A DNA stretch of 64,000 nt, from NCBI GenBank assembly GCA_964016885.1, contig OZ024743.1:302746001-302810000 (forward strand), written 5' to 3'. The notes below the pieces were generated by a model. That model was not told where the DNA came from and made no database searches. It was given only the letters and a program-made list of their open reading frames with translations. Origin of the DNA: Eledone cirrhosa. Its lineage: Eukaryota. Made by a program: the position numbers and the translations under genes. Below are positions 31,604-64,000 of this stretch, in pieces; the stretch's first letter is position 1; each line of letters starts with the position of its first letter.

Positions 31604-32704
31604 AGAACGATAAATTGATAGATATATACATATTTGTGTATATGACTTAGAGGTGACAATACCCATTGCAGTTACTGTCGTATCTTGCATATGTAATTAA
31701 GTGAGATAAATAACTAGATTCACTAAGGTTATGCAATCTATTAATATGGAAAATGATCGCTGTATTTCATTGTCATATAAAGTCAAGTATATCTATATCG
31801 ATATATTTGGTCATTATTCACTATGTATATTAGATGGATGTGGGTTTAACTCAAACTTGTAAAAACAATGCAGCCTAATGGACAGCAAAGAAGCAAATTC
31901 CACTCAGATATACATATTAAGAGTTATCAATATACATCGAAATGAAGGAGATGTGTCGACAGGAATTATGAATACTAAACGTAAGCCCCCTACATAAAAT
32001 ACCGCAGGGGAGGCTTCTACACGCATACTATAAATACAGTGGGTTGTCGTAAACGTAACTTGGTAAACTTGCTAGAATCGACCAGTTTTCATTCCGAAAG
32101 ATGTACAAGCCATTATAGCTGTTTGATTTTCATAAGTTTGCCTTTACATTATGACTCCTTGTAACTTTTATCAATACAATGTTATTGTATATATTATTTC
32201 TCTCTTTATATTTCTACTTATTATCGAACTTTTACTTTCATGCTGCCATTAACAAGTATTCTGAGTATAAAAGATTTCCGGTGGCAAAAATCTTTTAGTA
32301 GAAAATTGCTTCCGTTACAATATTTTATACAAGTAATTTTTTTATGATATTATTTTTCATTTTGATTTTCTTATTTTCTTATTTTCTCTACACAGCCCAT
32401 GAATTATGGATATTTTTTCTATTTATTTTCCATTTACTTTTCATTCTTTTCGTATATCGTTTCGAAAAATATCACTGCCTGTGGATTGCTGCCAATATTC
32501 CATTTTTTTTATTCCGTGTACTTGGCAAGATCAGGTTGGATAGATCAAGGAATTTGGCTTCTTCAAAATGGCTAGTGGCAACATTTACAAAGAAGATATA
32601 TTATAATTGGAAATCACTTTTACAATAAAATTACGTTATAGTTTGTGCAAGTTAAGGCTTATTATTATTATTACACTTATTATTATCATTATTATTATGA
32701 TTAT

Positions 32705-34075
32705 TGTTCTTTGAGTCTCGGTCATTGATGTTATTTAACTGGAAATGTTGTTGAAATGAATATCAAGCCACTACCTGCAGCCTCATATATTTAGGACGTA
32801 TCGGAGAATTCTTGCTGTTACCAGCAAGCATGCCTTTTGAAGTGTTCCAAAAAGCGGGGCGGGACCAATTTTCTTTAACTATCCTTGGAAACTCTTTGAG
32901 ATAGTACCTTGTGCGCCTATGATAATCGGGACCACTTTGACCTCATGGCACTTCCAAATCCTTTTTACCTCCCACTTTAAATCCTGACATCGGTTAATTT
33001 TCTCCCTCTCCTTCTCTTGCACTCTCGTGTCAAATGGGCAGGCAACATCCACAATCAATCAGTCACGATCTTTTTCCCTTGTCCAAAACCACCAGGTCAG
33101 GTCTATTGTGTTCCAGTTTCTTGTCCGTCTGTATCCTAAAATCCCACAACACCTTCACCTGATCCATTTCTATTCCCGACTCTGGCTTATGCTCTTACCA
33201 CTTCTCAGAATGTGGTAAATTGTTTACTTTGCATAGGTGCCAGTGGATCACCCTGCCCATCACATCATGTCTCCAGCCTTTATAGTGAGTCTGGGCTAGG
33301 TGTTTACACTCGGATACAATGTGAGCCACAGTCTCCTCTCTCTCTCCACATATCCTACACAGTGGGCTAGCCTCTTCCTTGTAAATATGGTGTTTCAGCC
33401 ACTTCGTTTTGATGGCCTGCTCTTGCGGAGACATTAGCATTCCTTCTGTAGCCTTTTTAAGGTCATCTCTTATCAAGCAGCTCCATGTCTGTGGATCTCT
33501 AAATTCAGTTTTCTCAAAGAAGGTACTATGAAGGGATTTATCATAAAGGTTGCTTTTTTCTCCTTGTTGTTATTTCCTCCTTGGACATCCCCTGGTCTAT
33601 TGTCCTCTTCTCCAGTACAATTATGAGCATTGGCTCTCTACTATTAGTCACGTTTTGTGTAGGTTGTTTTACTCCATCTGAACACAGTGCTCTATGCTGA
33701 TAAGACCTCTTCCACCTTCAGATCTCCTTAAGTAGAGTCTATCGACATCACTCCTCTTGTGGAACATGTTGTAGAGAGTCAATAGCTTCATAGTCTTCCT
33801 ATCTATTTCTTTTTATTCAGCAACATTCCATCTCAGAATTCCCGCACTGTACCTAATAATAGACACAACTCGGGAATTCACTGCACTTATGGCATTCCTA
33901 CTGTTCAGATGTGACTTTAATACGCTTCTTACTATCCAATGTATTCATATCTTATCCATTCCTTCATTTTTTTGTTCTCGGTGTCATCAGCCTCCAGAAC
34001 ACCTAAATATTTGTATTCTTCATCAGTATCAATTTACTTTATCATCTCACCTGTTCGTACTTGGTTTCCGTTGCT
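32705..34075 (-). mobile_element. R4/Dong-like family B, older diverged 5'-truncated copy (B0)
   Basis: DLKKATEGMLM..QEQAIKT...CRICGEREETVAHIVSEC; homologous to 53115-54490 with many indels; (TTA)n on both sides. Confidence 0.9.
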
Positions 34076-34103
34076 ATTATTATTGTTATTATTATTATTA
34101 TAG

Positions 34104-34735
34104 TTGCATTTATCTTGCTTTATGTTCATACGATTTATCACCAAGCCACAACCAGTGACCTCAAGGGACAACAAGGTCCGCCATGTTCAAGAAAGAACAT
34201 ACATATACACACACATGCATCTTTGGGTGTTTAGACTTGTGATGTACTTATATTGACAGAATCCTCCTTAGATTCTGGGCAGTTCCCATTAGTACTATCT
34301 TTTGTATTTCTCCTATACGCGGGTTTCCTGGGATTAGCGATACGTAATCATTAGACCTCTTGGGTATCATTCCTAGAGCGCCTACAACCACTAGTATTGT
34401 TCTAGGTCTCAATTTCCACATTTTTCCAATGTCTCTCTCCAGGTCCTCATACTTGCTCAATTTTTCAAATGTTTTTATAAATATATTCTTGTCTATTGGA
34501 ACGGACATATCAATTAGCAGCCATACCTTCTTGTTAAAGTCCTTCAGTATTATATCAGGTATATTTGCATCTATTTTTTGGTCTGTTTGGATGCTAATGT
34601 TCCACAAGATTGAGATGTGATCTTTTTCAAGTATGGGAGGTGGTTGATGCTCACATCAATTCTTTTGATGGGGCAGGTCAAAATGCTTACACATTATCCA
34701 ATGTATGTATTGTGGAGCTCTGTCATGCCTGTTTA
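34104..34735 (-). mobile_element. R4/Dong-like family A, 3' fragment (A1)
   Basis: RLE domain DANIPDIILKD..LIDMSVP..EKLSKYEDL; 3' UTR shared with A3/A4. Confidence 0.9.
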
Positions 34736-34748
34736 TTATTATTATTAT

Positions 34749-35165
34749 TTGCATTTATCTTGCTTTATGTTCATACGAGTTATCACCAAGTCACAACCAG
34801 TGACCTCAAGAGACAGCCAGGCCCGCCATGTTCAAGAAAGAACATATATACAGACACATGCATCTTTACGTGTTTAGACTTGTCATCTACTTATATTGAC
34901 AGAATCTTCCTTAGTATATGGGCAGTTCCCATTAGTACTATATTTTCTATTTCTCCTATACGCGGGTTTCCTGAGATTTGCGATAAGTAATGCATTAGAA
35001 CCCTCAACCACTGGTTCTTAATTTCCACATTTTTCAAATTTCCATCTCCAGGTCCTTATACATGCTCAATGTTTCAAATGTTTTTTATAGATAGATTCTT
35101 GTCTATTTGAACGGAGATATCAATTAGCAGGCATACCCTCTTTTTAAAGTCCTTCAGTATTATAT
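34749..35165 (-). mobile_element. R4/Dong-like family A, short 3' fragment with internal deletions (A2)
   Basis: Same 3' UTR tgcatttatcttgctt... plus partial RLE coding sequence; TTA-flanked. Confidence 0.88.
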
Positions 35166-35191
35166 TATTATTATTATTATTATCATTATTA

Positions 35192-38100
35192 TTTGCATTT
35201 ATCTTGCTTTATGTTTATACGAGTTATCACCAAGTCACAACCAGTGACCTCAAGAGACAACAAGGTCCGCCATGTTCAAGAAAGAACATACATATTCACA
35301 CATGCATCCTTAGTGTTTAGACTTGTGATGTACTTATATTGACAGGATCTTCCATAGTAAATGGGCAGTTCCCATTAGTACTATCTTTTGTATCTCTCCT
35401 ATACGCGGGTTTCCTGGGATTTGCGATAAGTAGTCGTTAGACCCCTTAGGTATCATTCCCAGAGCGCCTACAACCACTGGTATTGTTTTAGTTCTCAATT
35501 TCCACATTTTTCCAATTTCTATCTCCAGGTCCTTATACTTGCTCAATTTTTCAAATGTTTTTATAGATACATTCTTGTCTATTGGAACAGACATATCAAT
35601 TAGCAGGCATACCCTCCTGTGAAAGTCCTTCAACATTATATCAGGTCTATTTGCATCTATTTTTCGGTCTGTTTGGATGCTAAAGTTCCACAAGATTGAG
35701 ATGTGATCTTTTTCAAGTATGGGAGGTGGTTGATGTTCCCACCAATTCTTTTGATGGGGCAGGTCAAAATGCTTACACATTATCCAATGTATGTATTGTG
35801 CAGCTCTGTCATGCCTGTTTAGGTATTCGGTTGGAGCTATAGGACTGCACGTTGAAATTATATGGTCATTGGTCTCTGGTTGTTTTTTGCATACACGGCA
35901 TAATGGGCTGCACCCATTTTTTATTATGTTGGCTTGGTAATTTTTTGTTGGCAGACACTGATCTTGTGCGGATATAATCAGTCCTTCAGTCTCCGATTTC
36001 AATCCAGAGGATGCCAACCACTGATGGGTTAAAATTTTGTCAACATCAGGATTGTTAGCTCGCTCTGGGTATTTTCCATACAGAGGCTTTTCTTGCCATT
36101 TCTTAGCCAGTTTCTGTAGCAGTTCTTTCTTTGCAGTTACTTTTACCTGCTTTGCTTTTTCTGTGTTTTCCATTTCAGCAGTAAATGGGACTTCTGAAAT
36201 TTGTAGTCCATTACTGTATCTTTGTGCATCTTTTGTAATGGAATATGATCTTTTGGTGTTTTCGTGTTTCAAAACGAGTTTGATCATTCAATCATGTGAT
36301 TCCCTTAGATATGTGGATAATCCAATTGTTGCAGTTTTCAACGCAATGTCTAACTGGATTAACCCACGTCCTCCTTCTTTCCTAGGGAGATATATTCCAT
36401 CTATGTCTGCCTTAGGGTGATGCATTCTGTGCATGGTTAAGAATTTTCTGTTTTTTGTATCGAGCCTACGGATCTCTGTGCTTGACCAGTTGATGACATT
36501 GTAACTGTAGGTTACTACTGGTATGGCAAGTGTGTTTATGGCATCGATCCTATTCCTTGCATTCAATTCCGTTCTTAAGATTGCTCTGACTCTGCGGTAA
36601 CATTCCTTCCTTATCCTTTCCCTCATTGTCGAGTGCTTGATTCCGTCTCCTTCACAAACACCTAGATATTTGTAAGTTTTTTCTTGATCAAGCTCTCTTA
36701 TCACGTTCCCCCGATCAAGATTAATGTCTGAACTCTTCAGCAGCTTTCCTCTGGTGAACGTTGCTTTGGCGCATTTATCCAGTCCAAACACAATTTTAAT
36801 GTCATCACTGAACTGCTTCACAGTGGACAATAGCCCTTGTAATTGTTCATCATTCTTTGCAAATAGTTTCAGGTCATCCATGTAGAACAGGTGATTAATG
36901 GTTTTGTCATAGACTCTATATCCATGTTTTGTTTCATTGAGCATTTTACTTAATGGTATAAGTGCGATGCAGAATAAAAGCGGTGATAAAGAGTCACCCT
37001 GAAAAATTCCACAATTAATGTTAACTTCTCCAGCTTCCAGTGATTTTGTTTCACTATTCAAAAGGAGTGTCGTTCTCCATGTCCTCATACTGAATGACAA
37101 AAACCTCCTGACAACGGGGGATATTTTGAAAATCTCTAAACATTTTTCAATCCAACTGTGTGGCAAACTATCGAATGCTTTTTTATAATCTATCCAAGCA
37201 ATGGATAGATTTTTGTGTCTATTATGACAATCTTCCAGTATCATTTTGTTAACCAGAAGCTGATCCTTACAGCCATATGAGCCTCGTTTACACCCTTTCT
37301 GCTCAATGGGAAATAGGTCATTTGTTATCAGGTGGTCATATGTGTATTCAGTTAGGACTGATGTTAAAATGTTATACATTGTGGTCAAGCAGGTTATCGG
37401 TCTGTAATTTTTGGGATTGTTTGTCTCATCATTCTTCGGTAGCAGGATTGTAATGCCGTTAACTAGCCATGATGGTATCTTTTCTGGCTCCTTAACTAGT
37501 TCATTGTAAAGTTGGGCTAACAGCTCATGAGACTCTGTGAAGGCATTTATCCAAAAGTTTTGTATTTTGTCTTTTCCTGGAGATTTCCATTTGCTGGTTT
37601 TTCTTAGAGCCAAGCGCAGCTGTTCAACTGTTATATTTTCCCATGTTTGTTCTTCAAGGTGAGCTGTTTCTTTCATTTGTCTGTCTATCCATGGGGCATG
37701 TATGTTATGAACTTTTTTTTCGGCCCAGATCTTTTCCCAGAATTCTTGCACTTCCTCCGTGGGTGGTATTGATTTAGCAGTTATTGTTGACTTACCAATT
37801 TTTCTGTAGAATTTTCTTTGGTTGTTTTTGAACATATTACTGTCCTTATAGAATCTAGATCGTTTTTCAAAGCGCCTTATACGAGCAGCTTTGGCCGACA
37901 CTTTTTGCTTGATTGTTTCTATCAGCATGTCTATGTCACATGTTGATCTTATACTGTACTTTTTTTTCAATTTTCTAAGTTTAGTTTGTTTAACATGTTC
38001 ACCTACTTTATAGTTTGTTAAAATTTCTATGTCAGATCGGAGAATGTTTATTTGGCGATTGATGTTATCTTGCCAAGTAGATTTCTCGTGGGAATCCCTT

Positions 38101-40101
38101 TGTTTTTTCATCTTCACTCCACATAATTGAGTGGTGACTTTAGCCGATGCATAATAGAGATGATTTAAGTCAGTAATGTTTAGTTTGTTTGTGATGATAA
38201 TGTTTTTGAGAATTATGTTAGTCTTGTGTATTATCTTTTGGTTCAGTTTGGAGTTCTGGATCTTAGGGAGGGTGTCTCGTTGCCCCATGTCAGATTCTTT
38301 CATTTTCATCCATTCGATCATAATTTCATCCTTCAAGTTGGCAAGTTCATTCTCATTCATTTCTTTATCATTTACGATCTCATTATTTTCATTTGGAGTT
38401 TCATCCTGAGCATGCACTCCCTCCACTTTTTCGCTCCTTTCTTTAATTTGTTCTGTTGCCAGTGATTCCGCCCCAACCCTGGGATTCGAAGTGTTACAGT
38501 TTACCTCGTTTTCACTGACACATGCTTCATTTTCCCTTCGCTGACTTTGTGCTACTAGCTTGATCTGATCAATTTCTATATCAGTTAGTAACTTTTTTCT
38601 TACAATATTTCTTCGTATATTGGCTAGTTTGTTACTGTCAATATAGCCTCTGTTTTCGGGATGTTTCTTTTTCCAGTTGATATATGTTTGTTCTGTATTC
38701 GATGTATTTGATGGGTAGTACATGGTAGCGTATAAAGACTCAAGGACATCTTTATTATCTTCCCTTGACCATTTTTCTCTCTTTTTCTTTGGATTTCTTG
38801 GTGGTGAGCATGGAGGGCCAACAGTAGGAGTATTCCGGTTATGGGAGGTCTCCAGCTCCGAAGTGATGGGAAGGTTTGAACCATTAGCTGATTTTTCGAC
38901 CCCAGTCTGGTTCCTCTCCGAGGGACGCGGCCCTTTTTTACCCGGGTGACGGCCGATCCGGTATGAGATTTTATCATTAGACATTTACTTTATTTTGTCG
39001 CGTTTTATCCTTATCCGCCAAGGGGTAATCATTTCGTGTTACCACTTCTAGAACGAGTGTCAACCAAGACTAGAGGGGTCGTCCTCCCCTAGAGACATGG
39101 CTATTCCCCGCCGGCCGCCATCCCGGTATTTCTTGGTCACGGGGTTTTCTTTTTGTTGTTTTTTTTTAAATTGTTATTATCATGAGTGGTTCCTTAATGT
39201 GAGCATTGTGTGGCTTAAGAATGAAATTATTAATAATTGTCTCCACTCCAGGCACAAGGCCAGCAATCACCTAGTGCATTACAATAATATAATATACTTT
39301 TTGTTGTAGTTGGCTGTTATTGTTGTTGGCTATGTCGGTGGTGGTGCCGGGGCTTTTTATATCGTTGGTGAGGAAGGGGTGAGCCAGCAGTCCCATAACT
39401 GTTGACGTAGACGTTTGGCCGTGGCAAGGTCACCAAGTCAATCTATTTATATCTTTTGCTAGCCTCTCTCTTGTCTAGTGCTACCGCCACCTTCCCTTTT
39501 CTCTCTCAAGTTAACAGGGGAATAGTGTCAGTAGCATTGAATGAGTGGTGGCGGCGATGATGGATGTGGTGGGGTGGTGGCAGCGGTGGAGTTGTGGTTA
39601 CTGATATAGTATCTATGAGTTTGTGTTCGTATGTTTAATATATATTTTTTATTATATTTTGTGTTGACATATTCCCGTAAAATTTGAATTAAACATTTTT
39701 TAAAATTTGAGACAATAATAATAGTAATTATTATTATGATGCCGGTGAAATTGCCGTTATCTGGCTGTTATATTTAGTGTGATGGGATAGGTAGTGTATC
39801 AAGTTTCTGGTGTTGGTGAAATTGAAATTGCTGCTGTTCTATATAGTGTAGACAGAGGGTGTTTTGTTCCATTTATAACCATTTTCTTTTTTTTGAATAC
39901 AAAATATATAATACAAAATTGAATATTTGAGCGATACAACAATATAATATGGATCCGAAACTTTATGGGACCTCATTCGGTGCCTTTATGCAACATTTGT
40001 GCTAAGAATTGCTCTTTCACAATTGATTTAAATATGTTAAAAATCAAAAAACTTACGGGAGCATTTTCGTGACGTTCTACCACCTCGTGCGTCTTCTTCC
40101 C
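35192..40101 (-). mobile_element. R4/Dong-like family A, apparently full-length (~4.9 kb) copy (A3)
   Basis: ~1.1-kb 5' leader, single long ORF, short 3' UTR, (TAA)n at both ends. Confidence 0.95.
35334..38984 (-). pseudogene. R4-clade ORF (~1216 codons): Myb-like N-terminus, RT, CCHC knuckle, restriction-like endonuclease; one in-frame stop at 36288-36290
   Basis: KWSREDNK, KSPGKD, NYRPITCL, WIDYKKAFDS, GIFQGDSLSP, FYMDDLK, CRVC..ET..HIISTC, RPD..D..K..KY; TGA where A4 has TGG. Confidence 0.95.
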
Positions 40102-40126
40102 TTATTATTATTATTATTATTATTAT

Positions 40127-43100
40127 TTGCATTTATCTTGCTTTATGTTTATACGAGTTATCACCAAGTCACAACCAGTGACCTCAAGAGACAACAAGGT
40201 CCGCCATGTTCAAGAAAGAACATACATATTCACACATGCATCCTTAGTGTTTAGACTTGTGATGTACTTATATTGACAGGATCTTCCTTAGTATATGGGC
40301 AGTTCCCACTAGTACTATCTTTTGTATTTCTCCTATACGCGGGTTTCCTGGGATTTGAGATAAGTAGCCGTTAGACCCCTTAGGTATCATTCCCAGAGCG
40401 CCTACAACCACTGGTATTGTTTTAATTCTCAATTTCCACATTTTTCCAATTTCTATCTCCAGGTCCTTATACTTGCTCAATTTTTCAAATGTTTTTATAG
40501 ATACATTCTTGTCTATTGGAACAGACATATCAATTAGCAGGCATACCCTCCTTTTAAAGTCCTTCAATATTATATCAGGTCTATTTGCATCTATTTTTCG
40601 GTCTGTTTGGATGCTAAAGTTCCACAAGATTGAGATGTGATCTTTTTCAAGTATGGGAGGTGGTTGATGTTCCCACCAATTCTTTTGATGGGGCAGGTCA
40701 AAATGCTTACACATTATCCAATGTATGTATTGTGCAGCTCTGTCATGCCTGTTTAGGTATTCGGTTGGAGCTATAGGACTGCACATTGAAATTATATGGT
40801 CAATGGTCTCTGGTTGTTTTTTGCATACACGGCATAATGTGCTGCACCCATTTTTTATTATGTTGGCTTGGTAATTTTTTGTTGGCAGACACTGATCTTG
40901 TGCTGATATAATCAGTCCTTCAGTCTCCGATTTCAATCCAGAGTATGCCAACCACTGATGGGTTAAAGTTTTGTCAACATCAGGATTGTTATCTCGCTCC
41001 GGGTATTTTCCATTCAGAGGCTTTTCTTGCCATTTCTTAGCCAGTTTCTGTAGCAGTTCTTTCTTTGCAGTTACTTTTACCTGCTTTGCTTTTTCTGTGT
41101 TTTCCATTTCAGCAGTAAATGGGACTTCTGAAATTTGTAGTCCATTGCTGTATCTTTGTGCATCTTTTGTAATGGAATATGATCTTTTGGTGCTTTCGTG
41201 TTTCAAAACGAGTTTGATCATCCAATCACGTGATTCCCTTAGATATGTGGATAATCCAATTGTTGCAGTTTTCAACGCAATGTCTAACTGGATTAACCCA
41301 CGTCCTCCTTCTTTCCTAGGGAGATATATTCTATCTATGTCTGCCTTAGGGTGATGCATTCTGTGCATGGTTAAGAATTTTCGGATTTTTGTATCGAGCC
41401 TACGGATCTCTGTGCTTGACCAGTTGATGACATTGTAACTGTAGGTTACTACTGGTATGGCAAGCGTGTTTATGGCATCGATCCTATTCCTTGCATTCAA
41501 TTCCGTTCTTAAGATTGCTCTGACTCTGCGGTAACATTCCTTCCTTATCCTTTCCCTCATTGTCGAGTGCTTGATTCCGTCTCCTTCACAAACACCTAGA
41601 TATTTGTAAGTTTGTTCTTGATCAAGCTCTCTTATCACGTTCCCCGATCAAGATTAATGTCTGAACTCTTCAGCAGCTTTCCTCAGGTGAACGTTGCTTT
41701 GGCGCATTTATCCAGTCCAAACTCCATTTTAATGTCATCTCTGAACTGCTTCACAGTGGATAATAGCCCTTGCAATTGTTCATCATTTTTTGCAAATAGT
41801 TTCAGGTCATCCATGTAGAACAGGTGATTAATGGTTTTGTCATAGACTCTATATCCATGTTTTGTTTCATTGAGCATTTTACTTAATGGTATAAGTGCGA
41901 TGCAGAATAAAAGCGGTGATAAAGTGTCACCCTGAAAAATTCCACAATTAATGTTAACTTCTCCAGCTTCCAGTGATTTTGTTTCACTATTCAAAAGGAG
42001 TGTCGTTCTCCATGTCCTCATACTGAATGACAAAAACCTCCTGACAACGGGGGATATTTTGAAAATCTCTAAACATTTTTCAATCCAACTGTGTGGCAAA
42101 CTATCAAATGCTTTTTTATAATCTATCCAAGCAATGGATAGATTTTTGTGTCTATTATGACAATCTTCCAGTATCATTTTGTTAACCAGAAGCTGATCCT
42201 TACAGCCATATGAGCCTCGTTTACACCCTTTCTGCTCAATGGGAAATAGGTCATTTGTTATCAGGTGGTCATATGTGTATTCAGTTAGGACTGATGTTAA
42301 AATGTTATACATTGTGGTCAAGCAGGTTATCGGTCTGTAATTTTTGGGATTGTTTGTCTCATCATTCTTCGGTAGCAGGAATGTAATGCCGTTAACTAGC
42401 CATGATGGTATCTTTTCTGGCTCCTTAACTATTTCATTGTAAAGTTGGGCTAACAGCTCATGAGACTCTGTGAAGGCATTTATCCAAAAGTTTTGTATTT
42501 TGTCTTTTCCTGGGGATTTCCATTTGCTGGTTTTTCTTAGAGCCAAGCGCAGCTGTTCAACTGTTATATTTTCCCATGTTTGTTCTTCAAGGTGAGCTGT
42601 TTCTTTCATTTGTCTGTCTATCCATGGGGCATGTATGTTATGAACTTTTTCTTCGGCCCAGATCTTTTCCCAGAATTCTTGCACTTCCTCCTTGGGTGGT
42701 ATTGATTTAGCAGTTATTGTTGACTTACCAATTTTTCTGTAGAAGTTTCTTTGGTTGTTTTTGAACATATTATTGTCCGTATAGAATCTAGATCGTTTTT
42801 CAAAGCGCCTTATACGAGCAGCTTTGGCCGACACTTTTTGCTTGATTGTTTCTATCAGCATGTCTATGTCACATGTTGATCTTATACTGTACTTTTTTTT
42901 CAATTTTCTAAGTTTAGTTTGTTTAACATGTTCACCTACTTTATAGTTTGTTAAAATTTCTATGTCAGATCGGAGAATGTTTATCTGGCGATTGATGTTA
43001 TCTTGCCAAGTAGATTTCTCGTGGGAATCCCTTTGTTTTTTCATCTTCACTCCACATAATTGAGTGGTGACTTTAGCCGATGCATAATAGAGATGATTTA

Positions 43101-43961
43101 AGTCAGTAATGTTTAGTTTGTTTGTGATGATAATGTTTTTGAGAATTATGTTAGTCTTGTGTATTATCTTTTGGTTCAGTTTGGAGTTCTGGATCTTAGG
43201 GAGGGTGTCTCGTTCCCCCATGTCAGATACTTTCATTTTCATCCATTCGATCATAATTTCATCCTTCAAGTTGGCAAGTTCATTCTCATTCATTTCTTTA
43301 TCATTTACGATCTCATTATTTTCATTTGGAGTTTCATCCTGAGCATGCACTCCCTCCACTTTTTCGCTCCTTTCTTTAATTTGTTCTGTTGCCAGTGATT
43401 CCGCCCCAACCCTGGGATTCGAAGTGTTACAGTTTACCTCGTTTTCACTGACACATGCTTCATTTTCCCTTCGCAGACTTTGTGCTACTAGCTTGATCTA
43501 ATCAATTTCTATATCAGTTAGTAACTTTTTTCTTACAATATTTCTTCGTATATTGGCTAGTTTGTTACTGTCAATATAGCCTCTGTTTTCGGGATGTTTC
43601 TTTTTCCAGTTGATATATGTTTGTTCTGTATTCGATGTATTTGATGGGTAGTACATGGCAGTGTAGAAAGCCTCAAGGACTTCTTTATTATCTTCCCTTG
43701 ACCATTTTTCTCTCTTTTTCTTTGGATTTCTTGGTGGTGAGCATGGAGGGCCAACAGTAGGAGTATTCCGGTTATGGGAGGTCTCCAGCTCCGAAGTGAT
43801 GGGAAGGTTTGAACCATTAGCTGATTTTTCGACCCCAGTCTGGTTCCTCTCTGAGGGACGCGGCCCTTTTTTACCCGGGTGACGGCCGATCCGGTATGAG
43901 ATTTCATCATTAGACATCTACCTTATTTTGTCGCGTTTTATCCTTATCCGCCAAGGGGCAA

Positions 43962-43966
<5 letters not shown>
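40127..43966 (-). mobile_element. R4/Dong-like family A copy truncated in the 5' leader (A4)
   Basis: Near-identical to A3 from the 3' end to ~50 bp upstream of the ATG; TTA-flanked. Confidence 0.95.
40268..43917 (-). pseudogene. Family A RT-RLE ORF with stops at 43498 and 41683 and a 1-bp deletion at ~41643
   Basis: ORF pieces of 139, 558 and 456 aa are colinear with A3. Confidence 0.95.
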
Positions 43967-44002
<36 letters not shown>

Positions 44003-44439
44003 GTTGTTATTCCTTGAATCTCAGTCATTGATGTTGGTTAACTGGAAAGTCCGTTGGAATGAATATCAAGCCACTACCTGCAGCCTCAGATATTCAGGAC
44101 GTATCGGAGGGTTCTCGCTGTTCCAAGCAAGCATGCCTTTTGAAGCGTTCCAAAAAGCGTGAAGGGGCCGATTTTCTTTAACCATCCCTGGAAACTTTTG
44201 GAGATAGTCCCCAGTGCGCCTATGACAATCGGCATCACTTTGACTTCATGGCAGTTCCAAATCCTTTTCACCTCCCACTTTAGGTCCTGGTATCGGTTAA
44301 TTTTCTCCCTCTCCTTCTCTTGCACTCTCGTGTCGGACGGGCAGGCCACATCCACAATCAGACACGATCTTTTTTCTTTGTCCACAACCACCAGGTCAGG
44401 TCTATTGTGTTCCAATTTTTTGTCCGTCTGTATCCTAAA

Positions 44440-44441
<2 letters not shown>
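44003..44441 (-). mobile_element. R4/Dong-like family B, 3' fragment (B1)
   Basis: HNRPDLVVVD..VDVACP..EKINRYQDL..RYVLNI plus family B 3' UTR. Confidence 0.93.

Positions 44442-44509
<68 letters not shown>
44441..44509. repeat. (TTA)n spacer, longest of ~11 such tracts between array elements (others at ~32660, 34076, 34736, 35166, 40102, 43967, 47541, 53071, 56910, 61336)
   Basis: Direct reading. Confidence 0.95.
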
Positions 44510-44511
<2 letters not shown>

Positions 44512-44512
44512 A

Positions 44513-47540: not shown

Positions 47541-47546
47541 TTATTA

Positions 47547-47599
<53 letters not shown>

Positions 47600-47794
47600 G
47601 GCGACCTACGTAGTAAATCGTATCATCCTGAGCTCCGCAAAGTTTTGTTGTTTTAAGTTTTTTTAAATTGCCATTTATGGAAAACTGTTATTGTTAACTG
47701 TATATAAGTGCACATACATTGGTTTCTGAAAAGGACACTCAAAAAGATTGGGGCCTTGAGCCCAAAATTTAAACTTTATAATTATCAAACAAAA

Positions 47795-52700: not shown

Positions 52701-52822
52701 ATTTGAAAAGGAAAATCAGGGTAGAGAGGGAAGTGCTCTGTTCCCAGCATTTTGTTGAAAGATGGGTGAGAGAAGCAAGTATGGCCCGAGTGAATGGGCC
52801 TACTATGAGTATGTGTCTGTAA
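49755..52822 (+). pseudogene. Tx1-like ORF2: AP endonuclease + RT + zinc motif; many disruptions and a deletion at ~52030
   Basis: SINARGL, AISET, VGDWN, WTWTN..SYLDR, ADHK, GPGYWKLN, KSPGLDG, FRPITLLN, DQSKAFDRVDH, RQGC, AYADDV. Confidence 0.92.
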
Positions 52823-53067
52823 ATTAAAGGTGGAAAACTGGGAGAGGGCACTTGCCCTGGTGGTCAGGGTCACTGTGGCCTTTTAATGGGCTTTCCCCAC
52901 AAATGTCTCTCGGAAGTCTCCCTCCTATTGGGGAATTTTTCATTGTTATTTTTTTCATAACATCCTCTGTTTTTTTAGTCGCAGACATGCCCATTTGTAC
53001 AGTCCTGGATTGTCCTGTACTGTCCTTAATGTTTACTTTATGTAAAAACTTGTGGTTAATAAATAAA

Positions 53068-53114
<47 letters not shown>

Positions 53115-56100
53115 GTTGTTATTCCTTGAATCTCAGTCATTGATGTTGGTTAACTGGAAAGTCCGTTGGATTGAATATCAAGCCACTACCTGCAGCCTCA
53201 GATATTCAGGACGTATCGGAGGGTTCTTGCTGTTCCAAGCAAGCATGCCTTTTGAAGCGTTCCAAAAAGCGTGAAGGGGCCGATTATCTTTAACCATCCC
53301 TGGAAACCTTTGGAGATAGTCCCCAGTGCGCCTATGACAATCGGGATCACTTTGACTTCATGGCAGTTCCAAATCCTTTTCACCTCCCACTTTAGGTCCT
53401 GGTATCGGTTAATTTTCTCCCTCTCCTTCTCTTGCACTCTCGTGTCGAACGGGCAGGCCACATCCACAATCAGGCACGATCTTTTTTCTTTGTCCACAAC
53501 CACCAGGTCAGGTCTATTGTGTTCCAGTTTTTTGTCCGTCTGTATCCTAAAATCCCACAGCACCTTCACCTGACTGTTCTCCATCACCGCCTCTGGCCTA
53601 TGCTCATACCATTTCTCAGAATGTGGTAGATTGTTTACTTTGCACAGGTGCCAGTGGATCACCCTGCCCATCACATCGTGTCTCCAGCCCTTATAGTGGG
53701 TCTGGGCTAGGTGTTTACACTCGGACACAATGTGAGCCACAGTCTCCTCTCTCTCTCCACAGATCCTGCACAGTGGGCTAGCCTCCTCCTTGTAGATATG
53801 GTGCTTCAACCACTTCGTTTTGAGGGCCTGCTCCTGCGCAGCCATTAGCATTCCTTCTGTAGCCTTTTTGAGGTCTCCTCTTCTCAACCAGTTCCATGTC
53901 TGTGGATCTCTAAATTCAGTTTTCTCAAAGAAGGTGCTATGAAGGGATTTTCCCTTAAGGCTGCTCTTCCTCCTTGATGTTATTTCCTCCTTGGACATCC
54001 CCTGGCCTACTGTCCCCTCCTTCAGTACAGTTCTGAGCATTGGCTCCTTACTATAGGTCACGTATTTGTATAGGTTGTTTTTCTCCATCTGAACACAGTC
54101 CTCTATGCTGATAAGACCTCTTCCACCCTCAGATCTCCTTAGGTAGAGTCTATCGACATCACTCCTCTTGTGGAACATGTTGTAGATAGTCAATAGCTTC
54201 CTACTCTTCCTATCCATTTCTTTTTGTTCAGCAACATTCCATCTCAGAATTCCCGCACTGTACCTAATAATAGACACAGCTCGGGAATTTACTGCGCTTA
54301 TGGCATTTCTGCTGTTCAGATGTGACTTCAATACGCTCCTTACTCTCCGAATGTATTCAGTTCTTAACAATTCCTTCATTTTTTTGTTCTTTATGCCATC
54401 AGCCTCCAGAACGCCCAAATACTTGTATCCTTCCTCAGAGTCAATTTCCTTTATCATCTCACCTGTTGGTATCTGGATCCCGTTACTTCTGCTCAACCTA
54501 CCCCTCTTCATCACAATGACTCCACATTTACCAATACCAAACTGCATACATATATCACTGCTGAAAATACGGACAGTGTCAACAAGCACATCCAACTCCT
54601 TCTCACTTTTCCCGAAGAGCTTAAGATCGTCCATGAAGAGGAGGTGATTGATGGTAATCTCTCCCCTTCCCAACTTGTATCCTGCTCTCACTTTTCGCAG
54701 CATAATGGTCAAGGGCATCAGGGCAAGGACAAACAACAGAGGGGACAGGCTATCTCCCTGGAAGATACCTCTCTTGATCTTCACGCTTCCCAAGGATACT
54801 CCAGTTGATGTCAACTCTGTCTCCCAGGACCCCATACTCCTGCCTAGCAACTGTCTGATGTTATCTGCCACCCTGAAGATCTCCAGGCTTTTGGTGATCC
54901 AGGAATGAGGCACCATGTCAAATGCCTTTCTGTAGTCTATCCATCCCATGGCAAGATCAGTGTGTCTCCTCCTGCAATTCCCCATTACCATCTTATCAAT
55001 AAGTAACTGGTCCTTTGTACCACGTGACTTCTTTCGGCATCTTTTCTGTTCGTCCGGTAACAAGTTGTTTGTGTGGAGGTGATGGTAGATTTCCTCAGAC
55101 ACAATGCTCGTCAACAGTTTCCACATTACGGACAGACATGTGATAGGTCTATAGTTGGTAACATCATTACCCTTGATTCGGTCTTTCATTATCAGAACTG
55201 TGGTACCTTTTGTCAACCACTCTGGCACCTCACCCGACACCAAGCAGTCATTGAACATGGCCGTCAGCTTCGGGTGGAGGGATGTTAAATGTTTAATCCA
55301 ATACCCCTGCACACCATCTGGGCCTGGTGATTTCCAGTTGGTTAGTTTTTTGGCCTGTCCCTTAAGAGTTTCAACTGTGATACTCAAATCAGTTTGTTGT
55401 TGTGCCTGCTCACCGATCTCCCTCTGTACTGTCTCAATCCACCCTGCCTGGGCATTGTGTCTAACATCCTGCTCCCATATTCCTCCCCAGAATGTTTTAG
55501 TTTGCTCCGCCCCAGGGATCAAGTCGTTGCCTCTTTCTTTCCCCTCAAGCTGTCCAAACAGCATCTTCTGGTTGTTGTCGAACATGCGGTTCTGTTTATA
55601 CTGACTGACTCTGTTCTCGTATCGCCTGATTTTTGCACTCTTTGCTACAATGCGTTGCTTCAGTTCCTCTATGATAATATTTAGCTTTTTCCTCCTAGTT
55701 TTGTATTTTATTTCCAGTCTATTTTTAGTGCCTATGTTTTTTAGTGTCCCATTCAGTAGTGACTCAAGCTTTCCTATGTCATTTCTCATTTCCCCGATTT
55801 GCCCACTCAGTCGCTTCTTCCACCACGGCTCTGCTCTTTCTTGTCTGTTGTTTCCTCTCGCTTTTATACCAAGTAGTTTCCTCACCGTATTTGCTGTTGC
55901 TTTGAGGATATTGTTGCACTGGTGAAGGCTCCTCGGCTCAAGGTATGGGATGACTTTGTTTACATTAGCTGTTGTTTCTTTTAACTTTTTCCTGTCTACA
56001 AATCTTAGGTTCATAGGTCTCCCACTATCATTGTTCAATTAATCTACCACTAAATTTAGGATGTCAACCGAATCTTGTCCTAGCCCGTCAGCATTCATCT

Positions 56101-56897
56101 CCTCAGTGGCCGTATCTCTGTTCCAGGTATTATTTATCTCAGTATTCAGATTATTGTCTGCTTCGGGTGGTTCCTCCGTTCTCAGGACCTCTTCACCTTC
56201 ATTTCCCACTGGCTCGCTTGTCTGGCATACTACACCCGCCATCTCCAAGCCATTCTCTCTGCTCAGTTCCTCCAGTTCCAGATCGCTTATCCGTCCATTA
56301 GTTCTTATTACCCGAACCTGCCCGGCCAATTTTTGTTCATCTAATTTAAATAAACCAATCTCGTTCCAGATGTTATGCATCCGTCTCCTGTAGCCCCTCT
56401 CCTTGGGGTTACTGTTCAGGTAACATTGCATAACAGTTCTATTCAATTCTTTCGTCCAGTTGGTTCTGGCCCCTTTCCTTCTTCTCCTTCCTCCAACATC
56501 AGCAGTATTTGGTTGACAGTCAGGTTCCTGCTGCTGAGCCAGGGGGCACCTGTTGGGTGAGAGTCTGTCACATGACGTTCTAGTCTCCATTTCACCGTTA
56601 TTCGAACTGTTTATGTTCGATATTTAAACACTCTTATCGAGGATTGGCGAATGTATGGTTACATATCCATCTGTCGATCCGCCATTCCACTTGGCCCTTG
56701 TGTGGCATTATCACCACGCTGTATACGAACACACATAAACAAACAAACACACAGGCAGAAAGGGCCCCAAAAATGAATAAGCATAAGTTTCATTGTAATG
56801 TAGTGTTCGAATGTCTGACTTAGTTTTTGTTTTTTAAGTTTTAGTTTTTTCCCCCTCTTCTCTGTCCGTCCGCCTGCTTCTCTCTTCATTCTTATTT
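53115..56897 (-). mobile_element. R4/Dong-like family B copy (B2), truncated in the 5' leader
   Basis: Complete coding region plus ~300 bp of leader; TTA-flanked. Confidence 0.95.
53198..56590 (-). pseudogene. Family B RT-RLE ORF (~1130 codons), single in-frame stop at 56039-56041
   Basis: NWTKELN (Myb-like), KSPGPDG, WIDYRKAFDM, GIFQGDSLSP, LFMDDLK, CRIC..ETVAH..SEC, RPD..D..EK..RY. Confidence 0.95.
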
Positions 56898-56928
56898 ATT
56901 TTTTTTTTTTATTATTATTATTATTATT

Positions 56929-59900
56929 GTTATTGTTATTCCTTGAATCTCAGTCATTGATGTTGGTTAACTGGAAAGTCCGTTGGATTGAATATCAAGC
57001 CACTACCTGCAGCCTCAGATATTCAGGACGTATCGGAGGGTTCTTGCTGTTCCAAGCAAGCATGCCTTTTGAAGCGTTCCAAAAAGCGTGAAGGGGCCGA
57101 TTTTCTTTAACCATCCCTGGAAACTTTTGGAGATAGTCCCCAGTGCGCCTATGACAATCGGGATCACTTTGACTTCATGGCAGTTCCAAATCCTTTTCAC
57201 CTCCCACTTTAGGTCCTGGTATCGGTTAATTTTCTCCCTCTCCTTCTCTTGCACTCTCGTGTCGAACGGGCAGGCCACATCCACAATCAGGCACGATCTT
57301 TTTTCTTTGTCCACAACCACCAGGTCAGGTCTATTGTGTTCCAGTTTTTTGTCCGTCTGTATCCTAAAATCCCACAGCACCTTCACCTGACTGTTCTCCA
57401 TCACCGCCTCTGGCCTATGCTCATACCATTTCTCAGAATGTGGTAGATTGTTTACTTTGCACAGGTGCCAGTGGATCACCCTGCCCATCACATCGTGTCT
57501 CCAGCCCTTATAGTGGGTCTGGGCTAGGTGTTTACACTCGGACACAATGTGAGCCACAGTCTCCTCTCTCTCTCCACAGATCCTGCACAGTGGGCTAGCC
57601 TCCTCCTTGTAGATATGGTGCTTCAACCACTTCGTTTTGAGGGCCTGCTCCTGCGCAGCCATTAGCATTCCTTCTGTAGCCTTTTTGAGGTCTCCTCTTC
57701 TCAACCAGTTCCATGTCTGTGGATCTCTAAATTCAGTTTTCTCAAAGAAGGTGCTATGAAGGGATTTTCCCTTAAGGCTGCTCTTCCTCCTTGATGTTAT
57801 TTCCTCCTTGGACATCCCCTGGCCTACTGTCCCCTCCTTCAGTACAGTTCTGAGCATTGGCTCCTTACTATAGGTCACGTATTTGTATAGGTTGTTTTTC
57901 TCCATCTGAACACAGTCCTCTATGCTGATAAGACCTCTTCCACCCTCAGATCTCCTTAGGTAGAGTCTATCGACATCACTCCTCTTGTGGAACATGTTGT
58001 AGATAGTCAATAGCTTCCTAGTCTTCCTATCCATTTCTTTTTGTTCAGCAACATTCCATCTCAGAATTCCCGCACTGTACCTAATAATAGACACAGCTCG
58101 GGAATTTACTGCGCTTATGGCATTTCTGCTGTTCAGATGTGACTTCAATACGCTCCTTACTCTCCGAATGTATTCAGTTCTTAACAATTCCTTCATTTTT
58201 TTGTTTTTTATGCCATCAGCCTCCAGAACGCCCAAATACTTGTATCCTTCCTCAGAGTCAATTTCCTTTATCATCTCACCTGTTGGTATCTGGATCCCGT
58301 TACTTCTGCTCAACCTACCCCTCTTCATCACAATGACTCCACATTTACCAATACCAAACTGCATACATATATCACTGCTGAAAATACGGACAGTGTCAAC
58401 AAGCACATCCAACTCCTTCTCACTTTTCCCGAAGAGCTTAAGATCGTCCATGAAGAGGAGGTGATTGATGGTAAGCTCTCCCCTTCCCAACTTGTATCCT
58501 GCTCTCACTTTTCGCAGCATAATGGTCAAGGGCATCAGGGCAAGGACAAACAACAGAGGGGACAGGCTATCTCCCTGGAAGATACCTCTCTTGATCTTCA
58601 CGCTTCCCAAGGATACTCCAGTTGATGTCAACTCTGTCTCCCAGGACCCCATACTCCTGCCCAAAACTGTCTGATGTTATCTGCCACCCTGAAGATCTCC
58701 AGGCTTTTGGTGATCCAGGAATGAGGCACCATGTCAAATGCTTTTCTGTAGTCTATCCATCCCATGGCAAGATCAGTGTGTCTCCTCCTGCAATTCCCCA
58801 TTACCATCTTATCAATAAGCAACTGGTCCTTTGTACCACGTGACTTCTTTCGGCATCCTTTCTGTTCGTCCGGTAACAAGTTGTTTGTGTGGAGGTGATG
58901 GTAGATTTCCTCATACACAATGCTCGTCAACAGTTTCCACATAACGGGCAGACATGTGATAGGTCTATAGTTGGTAACATCATTACCCTTGATTCGGTCT
59001 TTCATTATCAGAACTGTGGTACCTTTTGTCAACCACTCTGGTACCTCACCCGACACCAAGCAGTCATTGAACATGGCCGTCAGCTTCGGGTGGAGGGATG
59101 TTAAATGTTTAATCCAATACCCCTGCACACCATCTGGGCCTGGTGATTTCCAGTTGGTTAGCTTTTTGGCTTGCCCCTTAAGAGTTTCAACTGTGATACT
59201 CAAATCAGTCTGTTGCTGTGCCTGCTCACCGATCTCCCTCTGTACTGTCTCAATCCACCCTGCCTGGGCATTGTGTCTAACATCCTGCTCCCATATTCCT
59301 CTCCAGAATGTTTTAGCTTGTTCCGCCCCAGGGATCAAGTCGTTGCCTCTTTCTTTCCCCTCAAGCTGTCCAAACAGCATCTTCTGGTTGTTGTCGAACA
59401 TGCGGTTCTGTTTATACTGACTGACTCTGTTCTCGTATCGCCTGATTTTTGCACTCTTTGCTACAATGCGTTGCTTCAATTCCTCTATGATAATATTTAG
59501 CTTTTTACTCCTAGTTTTGTATTTTATTTCCAGTCTATTTTTAGTGCCTATGTTTTTTAGTGTCCCATTCAGTAGTGACTCAAGCTTTCCTATGTCATTT
59601 CTCATTTCCCCGATTTGCCCACTCAGTCGCTTCTTCCACCACGTCTCTGCTCTTTCTTGTCTGTTGTTTCCTCTCGCTTTTATACCAAGTAGTTTCCTCA
59701 CCGTATTTGCTGTTGCTTTGAGGATATTGTTGCACTGGTGAAGACTCCTCACCTCAAGGTATGGGATGACTTTGTTTACGTTAGCTGTTGTTTCTTTTAA
59801 CTTTTTCCTGTCTACAAATCTTAGGTTCATAGGTCTCCCACTATCATTGTTCAACTCATCTACCACTAAATTTAGGATGTCAACCGAATCTTGTCCTAGC

Positions 59901-61331
59901 CCGTCAGCATTCATCTCCTCAGTGGCCGTATCTCTGTTCCAGGTATTATTTATCTCAGTATTCAGATCATTGTCTGCTTCGGGTGGTTCCTCCGTTCTCA
60001 GGACCTCCTCACCTTCATTTCCTGCCGGCTCGCTTGTCTGGCATACTACACCCGCCATCTCTAAGCCATTCTCTCTGCTCAGTTCCTCCAGTTCCAGATC
60101 GCTTATCCACCCATTAGTTCTTATTACCCGAGCCTGCCCGGCCAATTTTTGTTCATCTAATTTAAATAAACCAATCTCGTTCCAGATGTTATGCATCCGT
60201 CTCCTGTAGCCCCTCTCCTTGGGGTTACTTTTCAGGTAGCATTGCATAACAGTTCTATTCAATTCTTTCGTCCAGTTGGTTCTGGCCCCTTTCCTTCTTC
60301 TTCTTCCTCCAACATCAGCAGTATTTGGTTGACAGTCAGGTTCCTGCTGCTGAGCCAGGGGGCACTTGTTGGGTGAGAGTCTGTCACATGACGTTCTAGT
60401 CTCCGTTTCACCGTTATTCGAACTGTTTATGTTCGATATTTAAACACTCTTATCGAGGATTGGCGAATGTATGTTTACATAGCCATCTGTGGATCCGCCA
60501 TCCCACTTGGCCCTTGTGTGGCATTATCACCACGCTGTATACGAACACACATAAACAAACAAACACACGGCAGAAAGGGCCCCAAAAATGAATAAGCATG
60601 AGTTTCATTGTAATGTAGTATTCGAATGTCTGACTTAGTTTTTGTTTTTTAAGTTTTACTTTTTCCCCCCTCTTCTTTGTCCGTCCGCCTGCTTCTCTCT
60701 TCATTCTTATTTTCTTTACGTTTTTGGGGTTTCTTTTTTTGTTTTTGTTTTTCTCTGTTTGTTTTTCTCGTTTTTTGCTGTTGTTGCTGTGCTGCTTTGG
60801 TTTTGTTGTTTGTTTTTTCTTTTTTCTTTTGAGTCTATCTATATATTTTGATGCCTTCCTCTTTGTTAGTAGTAGGAATTCTATAATCGGCAAATGGCAG
60901 CCAGCAGGGAGAAGTGGGAGACTGGCGGCGTTGGCGATAATGAGACAGTGGTGGCGGTGATGTCGATACCGAGGCAGTGGTGGCGGTGATGCGACCGTAT
61001 TACTGTAGTGATGGTGCTGTAGCGGTGGCAGCAGCAGTGAAGGAGTCAAGGGGTGGTGGCGGCGGTGATGGGATAGTGGTGGTAATGATGGCCGTAGTGA
61101 GCGGTGGCGGTGAAGGTGAAAATGCTGTTGTGTTTAGTGTACACAGATGATGGGGTGGGTGGTGTATCTAGTTTCTGGTGTTGGTGAGTTTAGCTGTCCT
61201 ATATAGTGTAGCCAGAGGAGAGGAGGGGGGGGGGGGGGTTCTTCTTCTTCCATTTATAGCCATTTTTTGGGGGGGATATACAGTGTACAATACAAAGTTG
61301 AATATTTGAATATTTGAGCCTTATAACAATA

Positions 61332-61335
<4 letters not shown>
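56929..61335 (-). mobile_element. R4/Dong-like family B copy (B3) with ~930-bp 5' leader
   Basis: Near-identical to B2; the leader extends further; TTA-flanked. Confidence 0.95.
57015..60406 (-). pseudogene. Family B ORF with a 1-bp frameshift at ~58662; ACG where B2 has its start ATG
   Basis: The 544-aa and 549-aa pieces overlap at the frameshift; compared with B2. Confidence 0.93.
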
Positions 61336-61369
<34 letters not shown>

Positions 61370-64000
61370 GTTATTGTTATTCCTTGAATCTCAGTCATTG
61401 ATGTTGGTTAACTGGAAAGTCCGTTGGATTGAATATCAAGCCACTACCTGCAGCCTCAGATATTCAGGACGTATCGGAGGGTTCTTGCCGTTCCAAGCAA
61501 GCATGCCTTTTGAAGCGTTCCAAAAAGCGTGAAGGGGCCGATTTTCTTTAACCATCCCTGGAAACCTTTGGAGATATTCCCCAGTGCGCCTATGACAATC
61601 GGGATCACTTTGACTTCATGGCAGTTCCAAATCCTTTTCACCTCCCACTTTAGGTCCTGGTATCGGTTAATTTTCTCCCTCTCCTTCTCTTGCACTCTCG
61701 TGTCGAACGGGCAGGCCACATCCACAATCAGGCACGATCTTTTTTCTTTGTCCACAACCACCAGGTCAGGTCTATTGTGTTCCAGTTTTTTGTCCGTCTG
61801 TATCCTAAAATCCCACAGCACCTTCACCTGACTGTTCTCTATCACCGCCTCTGGCCTATGCTCATACCATTTCTCAGAATGTGGTAGATTGTTTACTTTG
61901 CACAGGTGCCAGTGGATCACCCTGCCCATCACATCGTGTCTCCAGCCCTTATAGTGGGTCTGGGCTAGGTGTTTACACTCGGACACAATGTGAGCCAAAG
62001 TCTCCTCTCTCTCTCCACAGATCCTGCACAGTGGGCTAGCCTCCTCCTTGTAGATATGGTGCTTCAACCACTTCGTTTTGGGGGCCTGCTCCTGCGCAGC
62101 CATTAGCATTCCTTCTGTAGCCTTTTTGAGGTCTCCTCTTCTCAACCAGTTCCATGTCTGTGGATCTCTAAATTCAGTTTTCTCAAAGAAGGTACTATGA
62201 AGGGATTTTCCCTTAAGGCTGCTCTTCCTCCTTGATGTTATTTCCTCCTTGGGTATCCCCTGGCCTACTGTCCCCTCCTTCAGTACAGCTCAGAGCATTG
62301 GCTCCTTACTATAGGTCACGTATTTGTATAGGTTGTTTTTCTCCATCTGAACACAGTCCTCTATGCTGATAAGACCTCTTCCACCCTCAGATCTCCTTAG
62401 GTAGAGTCTATCGACATCACTCCTCTTGTGGAACATGTTGTAGATAGTCAATAGCTTCCTAGTCTTCCTATCCATTTCTTTTTGTTCAGCAACATTCCAT
62501 CTCAGAATTCCCGCACTGTACCTAATAATAGACACAGCTCGGGAATTTACTGCGCTTATGGCATTTCTGCTGTTCAGATGTGACTTCAATACGCTCCTTA
62601 CTCTCCGAATGTATTCAGTTCTTAATAATTCCTTCATTCTTTTGTTCTTTATGCCATCAGCCTCCAGAACGCCCAAATACTTGTATCCTTCCTCAGAGTC
62701 AATTTCCTTTATCATCTCACCTGTTGGTATCTGGATCCCGTTACTTCTGCTCAACCTACCCCTCCTCATCACAATGACTCCACATTTACCAATACCAAAC
62801 TGCATACATATATCACTGCTGAAAATACGGACAGTGTCAACAAGCACATCCAACTCCTTCTCACTTTTCCCGAAGAGCTTAAGATCGTCCATGAAGAGGA
62901 GGTGATTGATGGTATGCTCTCCCCTTCCCAACTTGTATCCTGCTCTCACTTTTCGCAGCATAATGGTCAAGGGCATCAGGGCAAGGACAAACAACAGCGG
63001 GGACAGGCTATCTCCCTGGAAGACACCTCTCTTGATATTCACGCTTCCCAAGGATACTCCAGTTGATGTCAACTCTGTCTCCCAGGACCCCATACTCCTG
63101 CCCAGCAACTGTCTGATGTTATCTGCCACCCTGAAGATCTCCAGGCTTTTGGTGATCCAGGAATGAGGCACCATGTCAAATGCCTTTCTGTAGTCTATCC
63201 ATCCCATGGCAAGATCAGTGTGTCTCCTCCTGCAATTCCCCATTACCAGCTTATCAATAAGCAACTGGTCCTTTGTACCACGTGACTTCTTTCGGCATCC
63301 TTTCTGTTCGTCCGGCAACAAGTTGTTTGTGTGGAGGTGATGGTAGATTTCCTCAGACACAATGCTCGTCAACAGTTTCCACATTACGGGCAGACATGTG
63401 ATAGGTCTATAGTTGGTAACATCATTACCCTTGATTCGGTCTTTCATTATCAGAACTGTGGTACCTTTTGTCAACCACTCTGGCACCTCACCCGACACCA
63501 AGCAGTCATTGAACATGGCCGTCAGCTTCGGGTGGAGGGATGTTAAATGTTTAATCCAATACCCCTGCACACCATCTGGGCCTGGTGATTTCCAGTTGGT
63601 TAGTTTTTTGGCTTGCCCCTTAAGAGTTTCAACTGTGATACTCAAATCAGTCTGTTGCTGTGCCTGCTCACCGATCTCCCTCTGTACTGTCTCAATCCAC
63701 CCTGCCTGGGCATTGTGTCTAACATCCTGCTCCCATATTCCTCTCCAGAATGTTTTAGCTTGTTCCGCCCCAGGGATCAAGTCGTTGCCTCTTTCTTTCC
63801 CCTCAAGATGTCCAAACAGCATCTTCTGGTTGTTGTCGAACATGCGGTTCTGTTTATACTGACTGACTCTGTTCTTGTATCGCCTGATTTTGGCACTCTT
63901 TGCTACAATGCGTTGCTTCAATTCCTCTATGATAATATTTAGCTTTTTACTCCTAGTTTTGTATTTTATTTCCAGTCTATTTTTAGTGCCTATGTTTTTT
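61370..64000 (-). mobile_element. R4/Dong-like family B copy (B4), runs off the window; in-frame stop at 62290-62292
   Basis: 543-aa and 229-aa ORF pieces near-identical to B2/B3; AGA>TGA change. Confidence 0.95.

Follow-up and report, generated by a model that had tools for sequence, protein, structure and literature searches.

A stack of twelve non-LTR retrotransposon inserts in a (TAA)n microsatellite of Eledone cirrhosa and its likely growth by renewal of the target

How can 33.7 kb of a genome come to consist of nothing but retrotransposons and short runs of TAA? The question is raised by a stack of non-LTR retrotransposons (LTR, long terminal repeat) in Eledone cirrhosa that begins in the right half of the window analysed here, a stretch of 64,000 nucleotides (C4:302746001-302810000; contig C4 has 378.8 Mb, the genome 3.0 Gb). 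The initial annotation of this window had counted at least 11 insertions (four and five of two R4-type families and two Tx1-like), had placed all nine R4-type copies on the minus strand with only short (TTA)n and no unique DNA between the inserts, and had proposed independent insertions into a self-renewing target. Self-BLAST of the window together with the mapping of TAA/TTA tracts recovers this arrangement with the labels of the R4-type families swapped: 11 inserts are found at 32659-64000, of which the minus strand carries five of family A and four of family B, and the plus strand two of the Tx1-like family C. The whole stack has 12 inserts (five A, five B, two C), its right edge being 2.4 kb beyond the window. 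It is very likely that these are 12 separately inserted elements and that the stack grew because insertions leave and add repeat that serves as the next target, a reading that builds on direct observations of domain content, of a strand rule, of TAA repeats at either side of the elements, of clustering, and of a net gain of repeat. No host function of such stacks is implied. The features are as follows, with positions past 64000 given as "window-equivalent", i.e. with the window numbering continued into the adjacent 50 kb:

32659..32703: left terminal degenerate (TTA)n tract
32704..34075, minus: A1, older family A (R4/Dong-like), 5'-truncated, 93% identical to the nearest outside copy
34107..34735, minus: B2, older family B, 5'-truncated, 94%
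34752..35165, minus: B3, older family B, 5'-truncated, about 92%
35196..40101, minus: B4, full-length family B; open reading frame (ORF) 35334-38984 with one stop, reverse transcriptase (RT), CCHC and PD-(D/E)xK motif
40130..43966, minus: B5, family B, 5'-truncated, 99%
44007..44441, minus: A6, family A, 5'-truncated, 99%
44441..44509: (TTA)23, head-to-head between the 5' ends of A6 and C7
44510..47540, plus: C7, Tx1-like, both ends present, 2.8-kb internal deletion
47600..53070, plus: C8, Tx1-like, both ends present; decayed ORF1 and ORF2 (apurinic/apyrimidinic (AP) endonuclease and RT), 0.4-kb internal deletion
53071..53118: (TTA)14, tail-to-tail between C8 and A9
53119..56910, minus: A9, young family A, 5'-truncated; ORF 53198-56038 with RT, CCHC and restriction-like endonuclease (RLE)
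56936..61334, minus: A10, young family A, near full-length, frameshifted
61377..64000 and on to window-equivalent 66229 (C4:302812229), minus: A11, young family A, full-length
66248-66280 (C4:302812248-302812280): after (TTA)4 that follows A11, a 33-bp family B 3' stub, the 12th insert
up to C4:302812364: right terminal (TTA)28 after the B stub

From left to right the order is A1, B2, B3, B4, B5, A6, C7, C8, A9, A10, A11 and the B stub, and all spacers, 16-84 bases long, consist of (TTA)n, in part degenerate, unique DNA being absent between inserts. To the right, non-family DNA starts at about 66365 (window-equivalent) and the next family match lies 40 kb further. To the left, 32.6 kb of the window are free of matches to the stack families and contain only three TAA/TTA runs of three units each, and the pile-up of inserts next to them is therefore not a matter of chance. 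As the stack lies at 302.8 Mb of the contig, with non-family DNA on both flanks, it is interstitial, as had been assumed, and not a telomeric array of the TRAS/SART type.

Families A and B each encode a single ORF with RT (RVT_1), a CCHC finger and a PD-(D/E)xK endonuclease motif, intact versions of which exist outside the window (1141 amino acids in A, L165; 1216 in B, L034). The two proteins are 41% identical over 630 amino acids, and their best solved relatives are R2 proteins, both by profile (E 2e-69) and by fold, the fold search having used a confident predicted model (mean pLDDT, the predicted local distance difference test, of 86.9). A four-helix N-terminal domain (residues 51-128) is confidently predicted and no N-terminal C2H2 finger was seen; the best Atlas match of this domain is Rap1 Myb (score 0.87), which is a lead only, and there is no Pfam match to Myb. 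R4/Dong elements are described as having no N-terminal zinc finger and a divergent SANT/Myb-like domain (PMC7998251; this and the papers below are cited from excerpts), with which the modelled domain may be compatible. It is likely, by architecture and target, that A and B are R4/Dong-like, a label that does not come from named reference sequences; among 120 homologues listed for A/B none is named Dong or R4. ORF2 of family C matches Exo_endo_phos (1e-13), RVT_1 (5e-29) and zf-RVT (1e-7) in Pfam, and ORF1 of a sister family has a zf-CCHC match weaker than the Pfam cut-off (0.0015). An ORF1, an ORF2 with AP endonuclease and RT, and the targeting make a Tx1-like nature of family C likely, likewise by features and not by named references. 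Counted by exact-pattern matches to element ends, the genome holds 11,943 family A 3' ends (control 133), 4,933 family B 3' ends and 22,263 Tx1-group 3' ends (control 115), as well as 1,294 full-length A/B 5' ends and 1,817 family C 5' ends, and the family library matches 6.9% of the bases in 400 kb of random sequence, weaker relatives counted in.

Do these families target the repeat elsewhere, too? Family C 5' ends are preceded by TTA repeats in a single phase in all of the first 100 listed of 1,817, and A/B 5' ends by at least two TAA units in 85 of the first 100 listed of 1,294 (a by-eye count). Loci were also fetched (15 of 39 A, 20 of 40 B and 20 of 39 C matches, 40 random 10-kb windows and several clusters), the fetched copies being best matches and hence biased to young ones; L039 was dropped as a near-duplicate of L038. 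These two 10-kb loci (C3:14.62 and 14.72 Mb, respectively) are 98 kb apart and represent either a segmental duplication or a retained haplotype. Of the copies in the fetched loci, 68 of 73 (A), 51 of 51 (B) and 48 of 53 (C) have the own-strand repeat at the 3' end, in support of the (TAA)n targeting initially proposed. The corresponding numbers for an own-strand tract at the 5' junction are 49 of 65 (A), 43 of 49 (B) and 36 of 42 (C), in copies that are mostly truncated, and some of the misses are gaps of the library. A 5' tract of this kind cannot be a retrotransposon tail, and the one at 44441-44509, which sits between two 5' ends, is a tail of neither A6 nor C7. In young R4 copies the 5' tract exceeds the 3' tract in 34 versus 12 of 47 cases (p 0.003).

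The R4 families follow the TAA strand and the Tx1 families the TTA strand, a rule that is kept in 129 of 133 adjacent pairs of the fetched loci. That the Tx1-like family itself strictly targets the same repeat on the opposite strand adds to the initial annotation, as does the finding that the locus is not exceptional. Beside a B copy there is a flipped tract, (TAA)5 (TTA)4 (TAA)5 (TTA)5 (L005:9504-9558, window-equivalent 113504-113558), and such tracts may be the source of the few exceptions in orientation. In front of some A/B copies (L024, L011, L168) there is long (GAA)n and not (TAA)n, and compound TAA-GAA tracts occur also without insertion (L137, L158). A Tx1-like sister family, the 3' end of which is nearly identical, has (TATC)n and not (TTA)n at its flank (C1:1832097; L020:165); TATC- or TA-type tails, which are found in about 20 of 100 listed Tx1-group 3' rows, suggest a target switch inside this group. 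The stacks contain further Tx1 families, and a 190-bp SINE-like (short interspersed element) repeat with a Tx1-like 3' end lies between TTA tracts on the Tx1 strand (L010:4884-5072; L055; L056; L018), a part of which is also found inside the family B 5' untranslated region (UTR).

Targeting alone could merely split a pre-existing tract. The tracts of the stack sum up to about 150 perfect-run TAA units (155 minus three inside B4), whereas the entire 3 Gb contain only three tracts of at least 50 units, the longest having 58, and it follows that repeat has been added. Among positionally sampled long tracts (at least 11 units), 21 of 30 adjoin a family member and nine do not, and in the 400 kb of random sequence this holds for nine of 21 tracts of at least four units and for three of three tracts of at least eight. 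In the Tx1 copy L047 a TTA-to-TCA boundary is duplicated on both sides, like a target-site duplication. The presumed route of insertion is target-primed reverse transcription, with a nick that would be made in the TTA strand by the restriction-like endonuclease of R4 elements and in the TAA strand by the AP endonuclease of Tx1 elements. Through duplication of the target, tails of repeat units and slippage, two usable tracts would then stand where one had been, so that occupied sites would gain insertions faster than empty ones, a case of the rich getting richer.

Stacking is the rule at other loci as well: among the seeds, a linked neighbour is present inside the 10-kb locus in 12 of 15 (A), 19 of 19 (B) and 11 of 20 (C) cases. 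Another test, unbiased by position, took every 3' end listed for C1 0-26.8 Mb (72 R4 and 80 Tx1, leaving out 20 of 100 Tx1 rows with non-ATT tails), with clusters defined as ends within 7 kb and a null in which ends were jittered by 0.5 Mb either way in 5,000 runs, so that regional density was kept. Of these ends, 102 of 152 are clustered, as compared to a null mean of 18 and maximum of 37, and of 69 pairs of neighbours 66 keep the strand rule. For full-length A/B 5' ends, 15 pairs lie within 12 kb of each other, all of them same-strand, where 2.1 are expected. Cluster sizes are described by log-series, Yule or geometric distributions (log-likelihood -102.7 to -104.7) better than by a Poisson distribution (-116.5), and the extrapolated number of stacks with at least 12 inserts genome-wide is model-dependent, from 3 to about 250. 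The window stack is an upper-tail case of a genome-wide pattern, large but not unique. The cluster at C1:21.47-21.50 Mb is a looser array with gaps and older copies; other clusters, chosen by hand, are stacks 21-43 kb long that hold about 7-12 inserts, for example:

C1:37,168,738-37,211,492: stack
C1:37,102,391-37,141,960: stack
C1:2,789,259-2,814,575: stack
C1:26,002,007-26,030,570: stack
C1:82,778,659-82,805,051: stack
C1:11,275,323-11,296,721: stack
C1:36,941,125-36,965,259: stack

Stacks could also arise if TAA is targeted but insertions accumulate in permissive regions, with open chromatin or weak selection, and not via a renewal of the target. Several stacks crowd in C1:36.9-37.2 Mb, and heavy-tailed, overdispersed cluster sizes would likewise be expected from site heterogeneity, i.e. 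from regional differences in accessibility or selection. Both points weigh against growth by target renewal, and so do the 15 of 100 listed A/B 5' ends without a TAA tract (GAA repeats in 10, a repeated leader start in three, other sequence in two), the target-site duplication, which was seen only once and is invisible within perfect repeats, and the circumstance that the stack junctions are known from the assembly alone and the insertion history from filled alleles alone. However, the null that preserves regional density falls far short of the observed clustering even at its maximum, the inserts adjoin each other through tracts and are not scattered, some 150 units are too many for one tract, and the left 32 kb of the window are free of the stack families, which makes permissive regions as such an improbable explanation. 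An expansion of few insertions by tandem duplication or unequal crossing-over might be suspected from A9-A11, which are adjacent and 98.5-99.1% identical, and from B4 and B5, which pair with a support of 0.88 and share four non-majority sites, two of them exclusive to the pair, next to 26 and 17 private sites. This weak pair, which may go back to a common source or to local copying long ago, is the sole result against full independence. But no two of the 12 inserts agree in both length and internal structure, three unrelated families alternate, with ages from about 92% to 99.5% identity to the nearest outside copy, and A9, A10, A11, B4 and B5 are each closer to some copy at another locus than to their stack mates. 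Trees built from the 3' 2.6 kb place A11 together with copies from C3 and C1 (support 0.99), and A9 together with copies from C5 and C1 (0.97). Local duplication is thus a very improbable origin, in line with what had been annotated.

It can hardly be expected, either, that the assembler joined unrelated loci via TAA tracts, although joins of this kind would keep to the strand rule as well and although the tracts were not bridged by read sets X1, X13, X14 and X5, which gave the left flank as one contig. The spacers are short, stacks recur at most sampled copies, including all 19 B seeds, some neighbours are fused without any tract (L035, L029), and sequencing that gives 400-Mb contigs would be expected to cross such spacers. 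Of the datasets listed, only X1-X3 contain the locus in full; they come from one sample that possibly was the source of the assembly and are for this reason no independent evidence, and no RNA dataset was listed.

The oldest R4 copies of the window stack are at its left end. Across the fetched stacks there is no age polarity, the upstream copy being younger in 17 R4 pairs and the downstream copy in 17, with 36 ties, and a conveyor-belt model of polar growth was rejected as a general model on this basis. A systematic co-mobilisation of upstream stubs was also rejected, as the five stubs below 130 bp show no recurring unit.

Families A and B have a common 5' leader of about 330 nt, despite ORFs without BLASTN similarity, and in B4 this leader, homologous to that of family A, is at 39770-40101 (minus). 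Young A and young B copies have leaders with 83-87% identity to each other, while those of old A copies reach only 57-66% with either. A young-A leader (96%) heads two B bodies, and a leader that groups with B heads at least one A body (L028); the leader has moved between A and B at least twice (A11/L001, L028, L149, L178). Family C has two different modules of 5' UTR and ORF1 on one ORF2, with 94% identity from ORF2 onward, and one family C leader also heads a D-type body (L018). In the 5' UTR of A11 about 330 bp are duplicated in tandem (L001:1745-2077, window-equivalent 65745-66077), which is also seen in L011. Recruitment and exchange of 5' UTRs is known from mouse L1 families (PMC3600994), where leaders likewise move between co-existing families of long interspersed elements (LINEs), but the A/B partners are far more distant, with their 41% protein identity and without BLASTN similarity of their ORFs. 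Bombyx Dong has a ribozyme like that of hepatitis delta virus (HDV; PMC3774820); unlike there, no HDV-like ribozyme was detected in the A/B leader, neither as an Rfam match nor with a descriptor, for which there was no positive control. No conserved RNA fold was found in 17 leaders, 30 of 100 shuffles being equally good. That the shared leader acts as an internal promoter is a guess.

The silkworm elements TRAS and SART belong to the R1 clade, and the two families are in opposite orientation. They are the nearest model, as several families interrupt one simple repeat, the telomeric (TTAGG)n (PMC4700185), but these AP-endonuclease elements are telomeric and, as far as described there, mostly full length, while the stacks described here are interstitial, at thousands of sites, built from mostly 5'-truncated copies and from two endonuclease classes. 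For Dong, (TAA)n is reported as the target in most insects, molluscs and cnidarians (PMC7998251), and A and B resemble Dong/R4 in the single ORF with RT and restriction-like endonuclease and in the (TAA)n target, and possibly in the lack of an N-terminal zinc finger and in a Myb-like helical domain at the N terminus (PMC7998251, PMC3774820), whereas copy numbers of at least 11.8 (A) and 4.9 (B) thousand, multi-family stacks and leader exchange differ from what is reported in the Dong excerpts. Members of the Tx1 clade are often microsatellite-targeted, such as Kibi in (TC)n, Koshi in (TTC)n and crocodilian elements in (TTCC)n/(TTTC)n (PMC4494074), and share with family C the two ORFs, AP endonuclease and RT, the strict microsatellite target, and a SINE with similar 3' end and the same target; the (TTA)n target of family C, common to an RLE clade on the opposite strand, is unlike those named in the excerpted part of that paper. 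An (ATT)n-specific Tx1 may be present in Repbase or in paper supplements. Tandem insertion at one target is known for Utopia (PMC4640811) and SINEU-3 (PMC4494074). In octopus genomes, Dong-R4 and L1-Tx1 are reported to be abundant, with recent activity (PMC13282606, PMC8967140); in the text available, PMC13282606 does not use "nested" and has "microsatellite" a single time, in a figure legend, and PMC8967140 does not use "microsatellite". A literature search, with subscription papers and Repbase outside its scope, returned no paper that describes interstitial stacks of mixed R4/Tx1 make-up in (TAA)n. All ingredients have a precedent; the stacks described here stand out by their scale, by the rule of two clades on opposite strands, by the measured gain of target and by the leader exchange.

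Outside the stack, the window contains a 298-bp inverted repeat (99%) at 23744-24041 and 28719-29016 around two AT-rich ORFs, 26313-27662 and 27725-28774 (minus), the motifs of which presumably resemble a Penelope-type RT and a GIY-YIG endonuclease, with no Pfam hit. For an open frame of 77 amino acids in the left flank, Pfam gave no match.

Taken together, it can tentatively be proposed, though as a whole this is rather doubtful, that (TAA)n is a genome-wide niche in which two unrelated endonuclease classes converged on opposite strands, make most of their own long targets, and build tens to hundreds of interstitial stacks of the 30-kb class that serve as an arena for swaps of promoter leaders between deeply diverged families. 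With renewal of the target, local transposon hotspots would be explained by insertion chemistry and not by selection or host function, and with families that make up to about 7% of random sequence, a sizeable part of the genome would grow in gene-sparing stacks. Some caution is due with long TAA microsatellite markers in such genomes, which would mostly be transposon junctions. For the evolution of target specificity, for positive feedback and for module exchange among LINE clades, the stacks would offer thousands of natural replicates.

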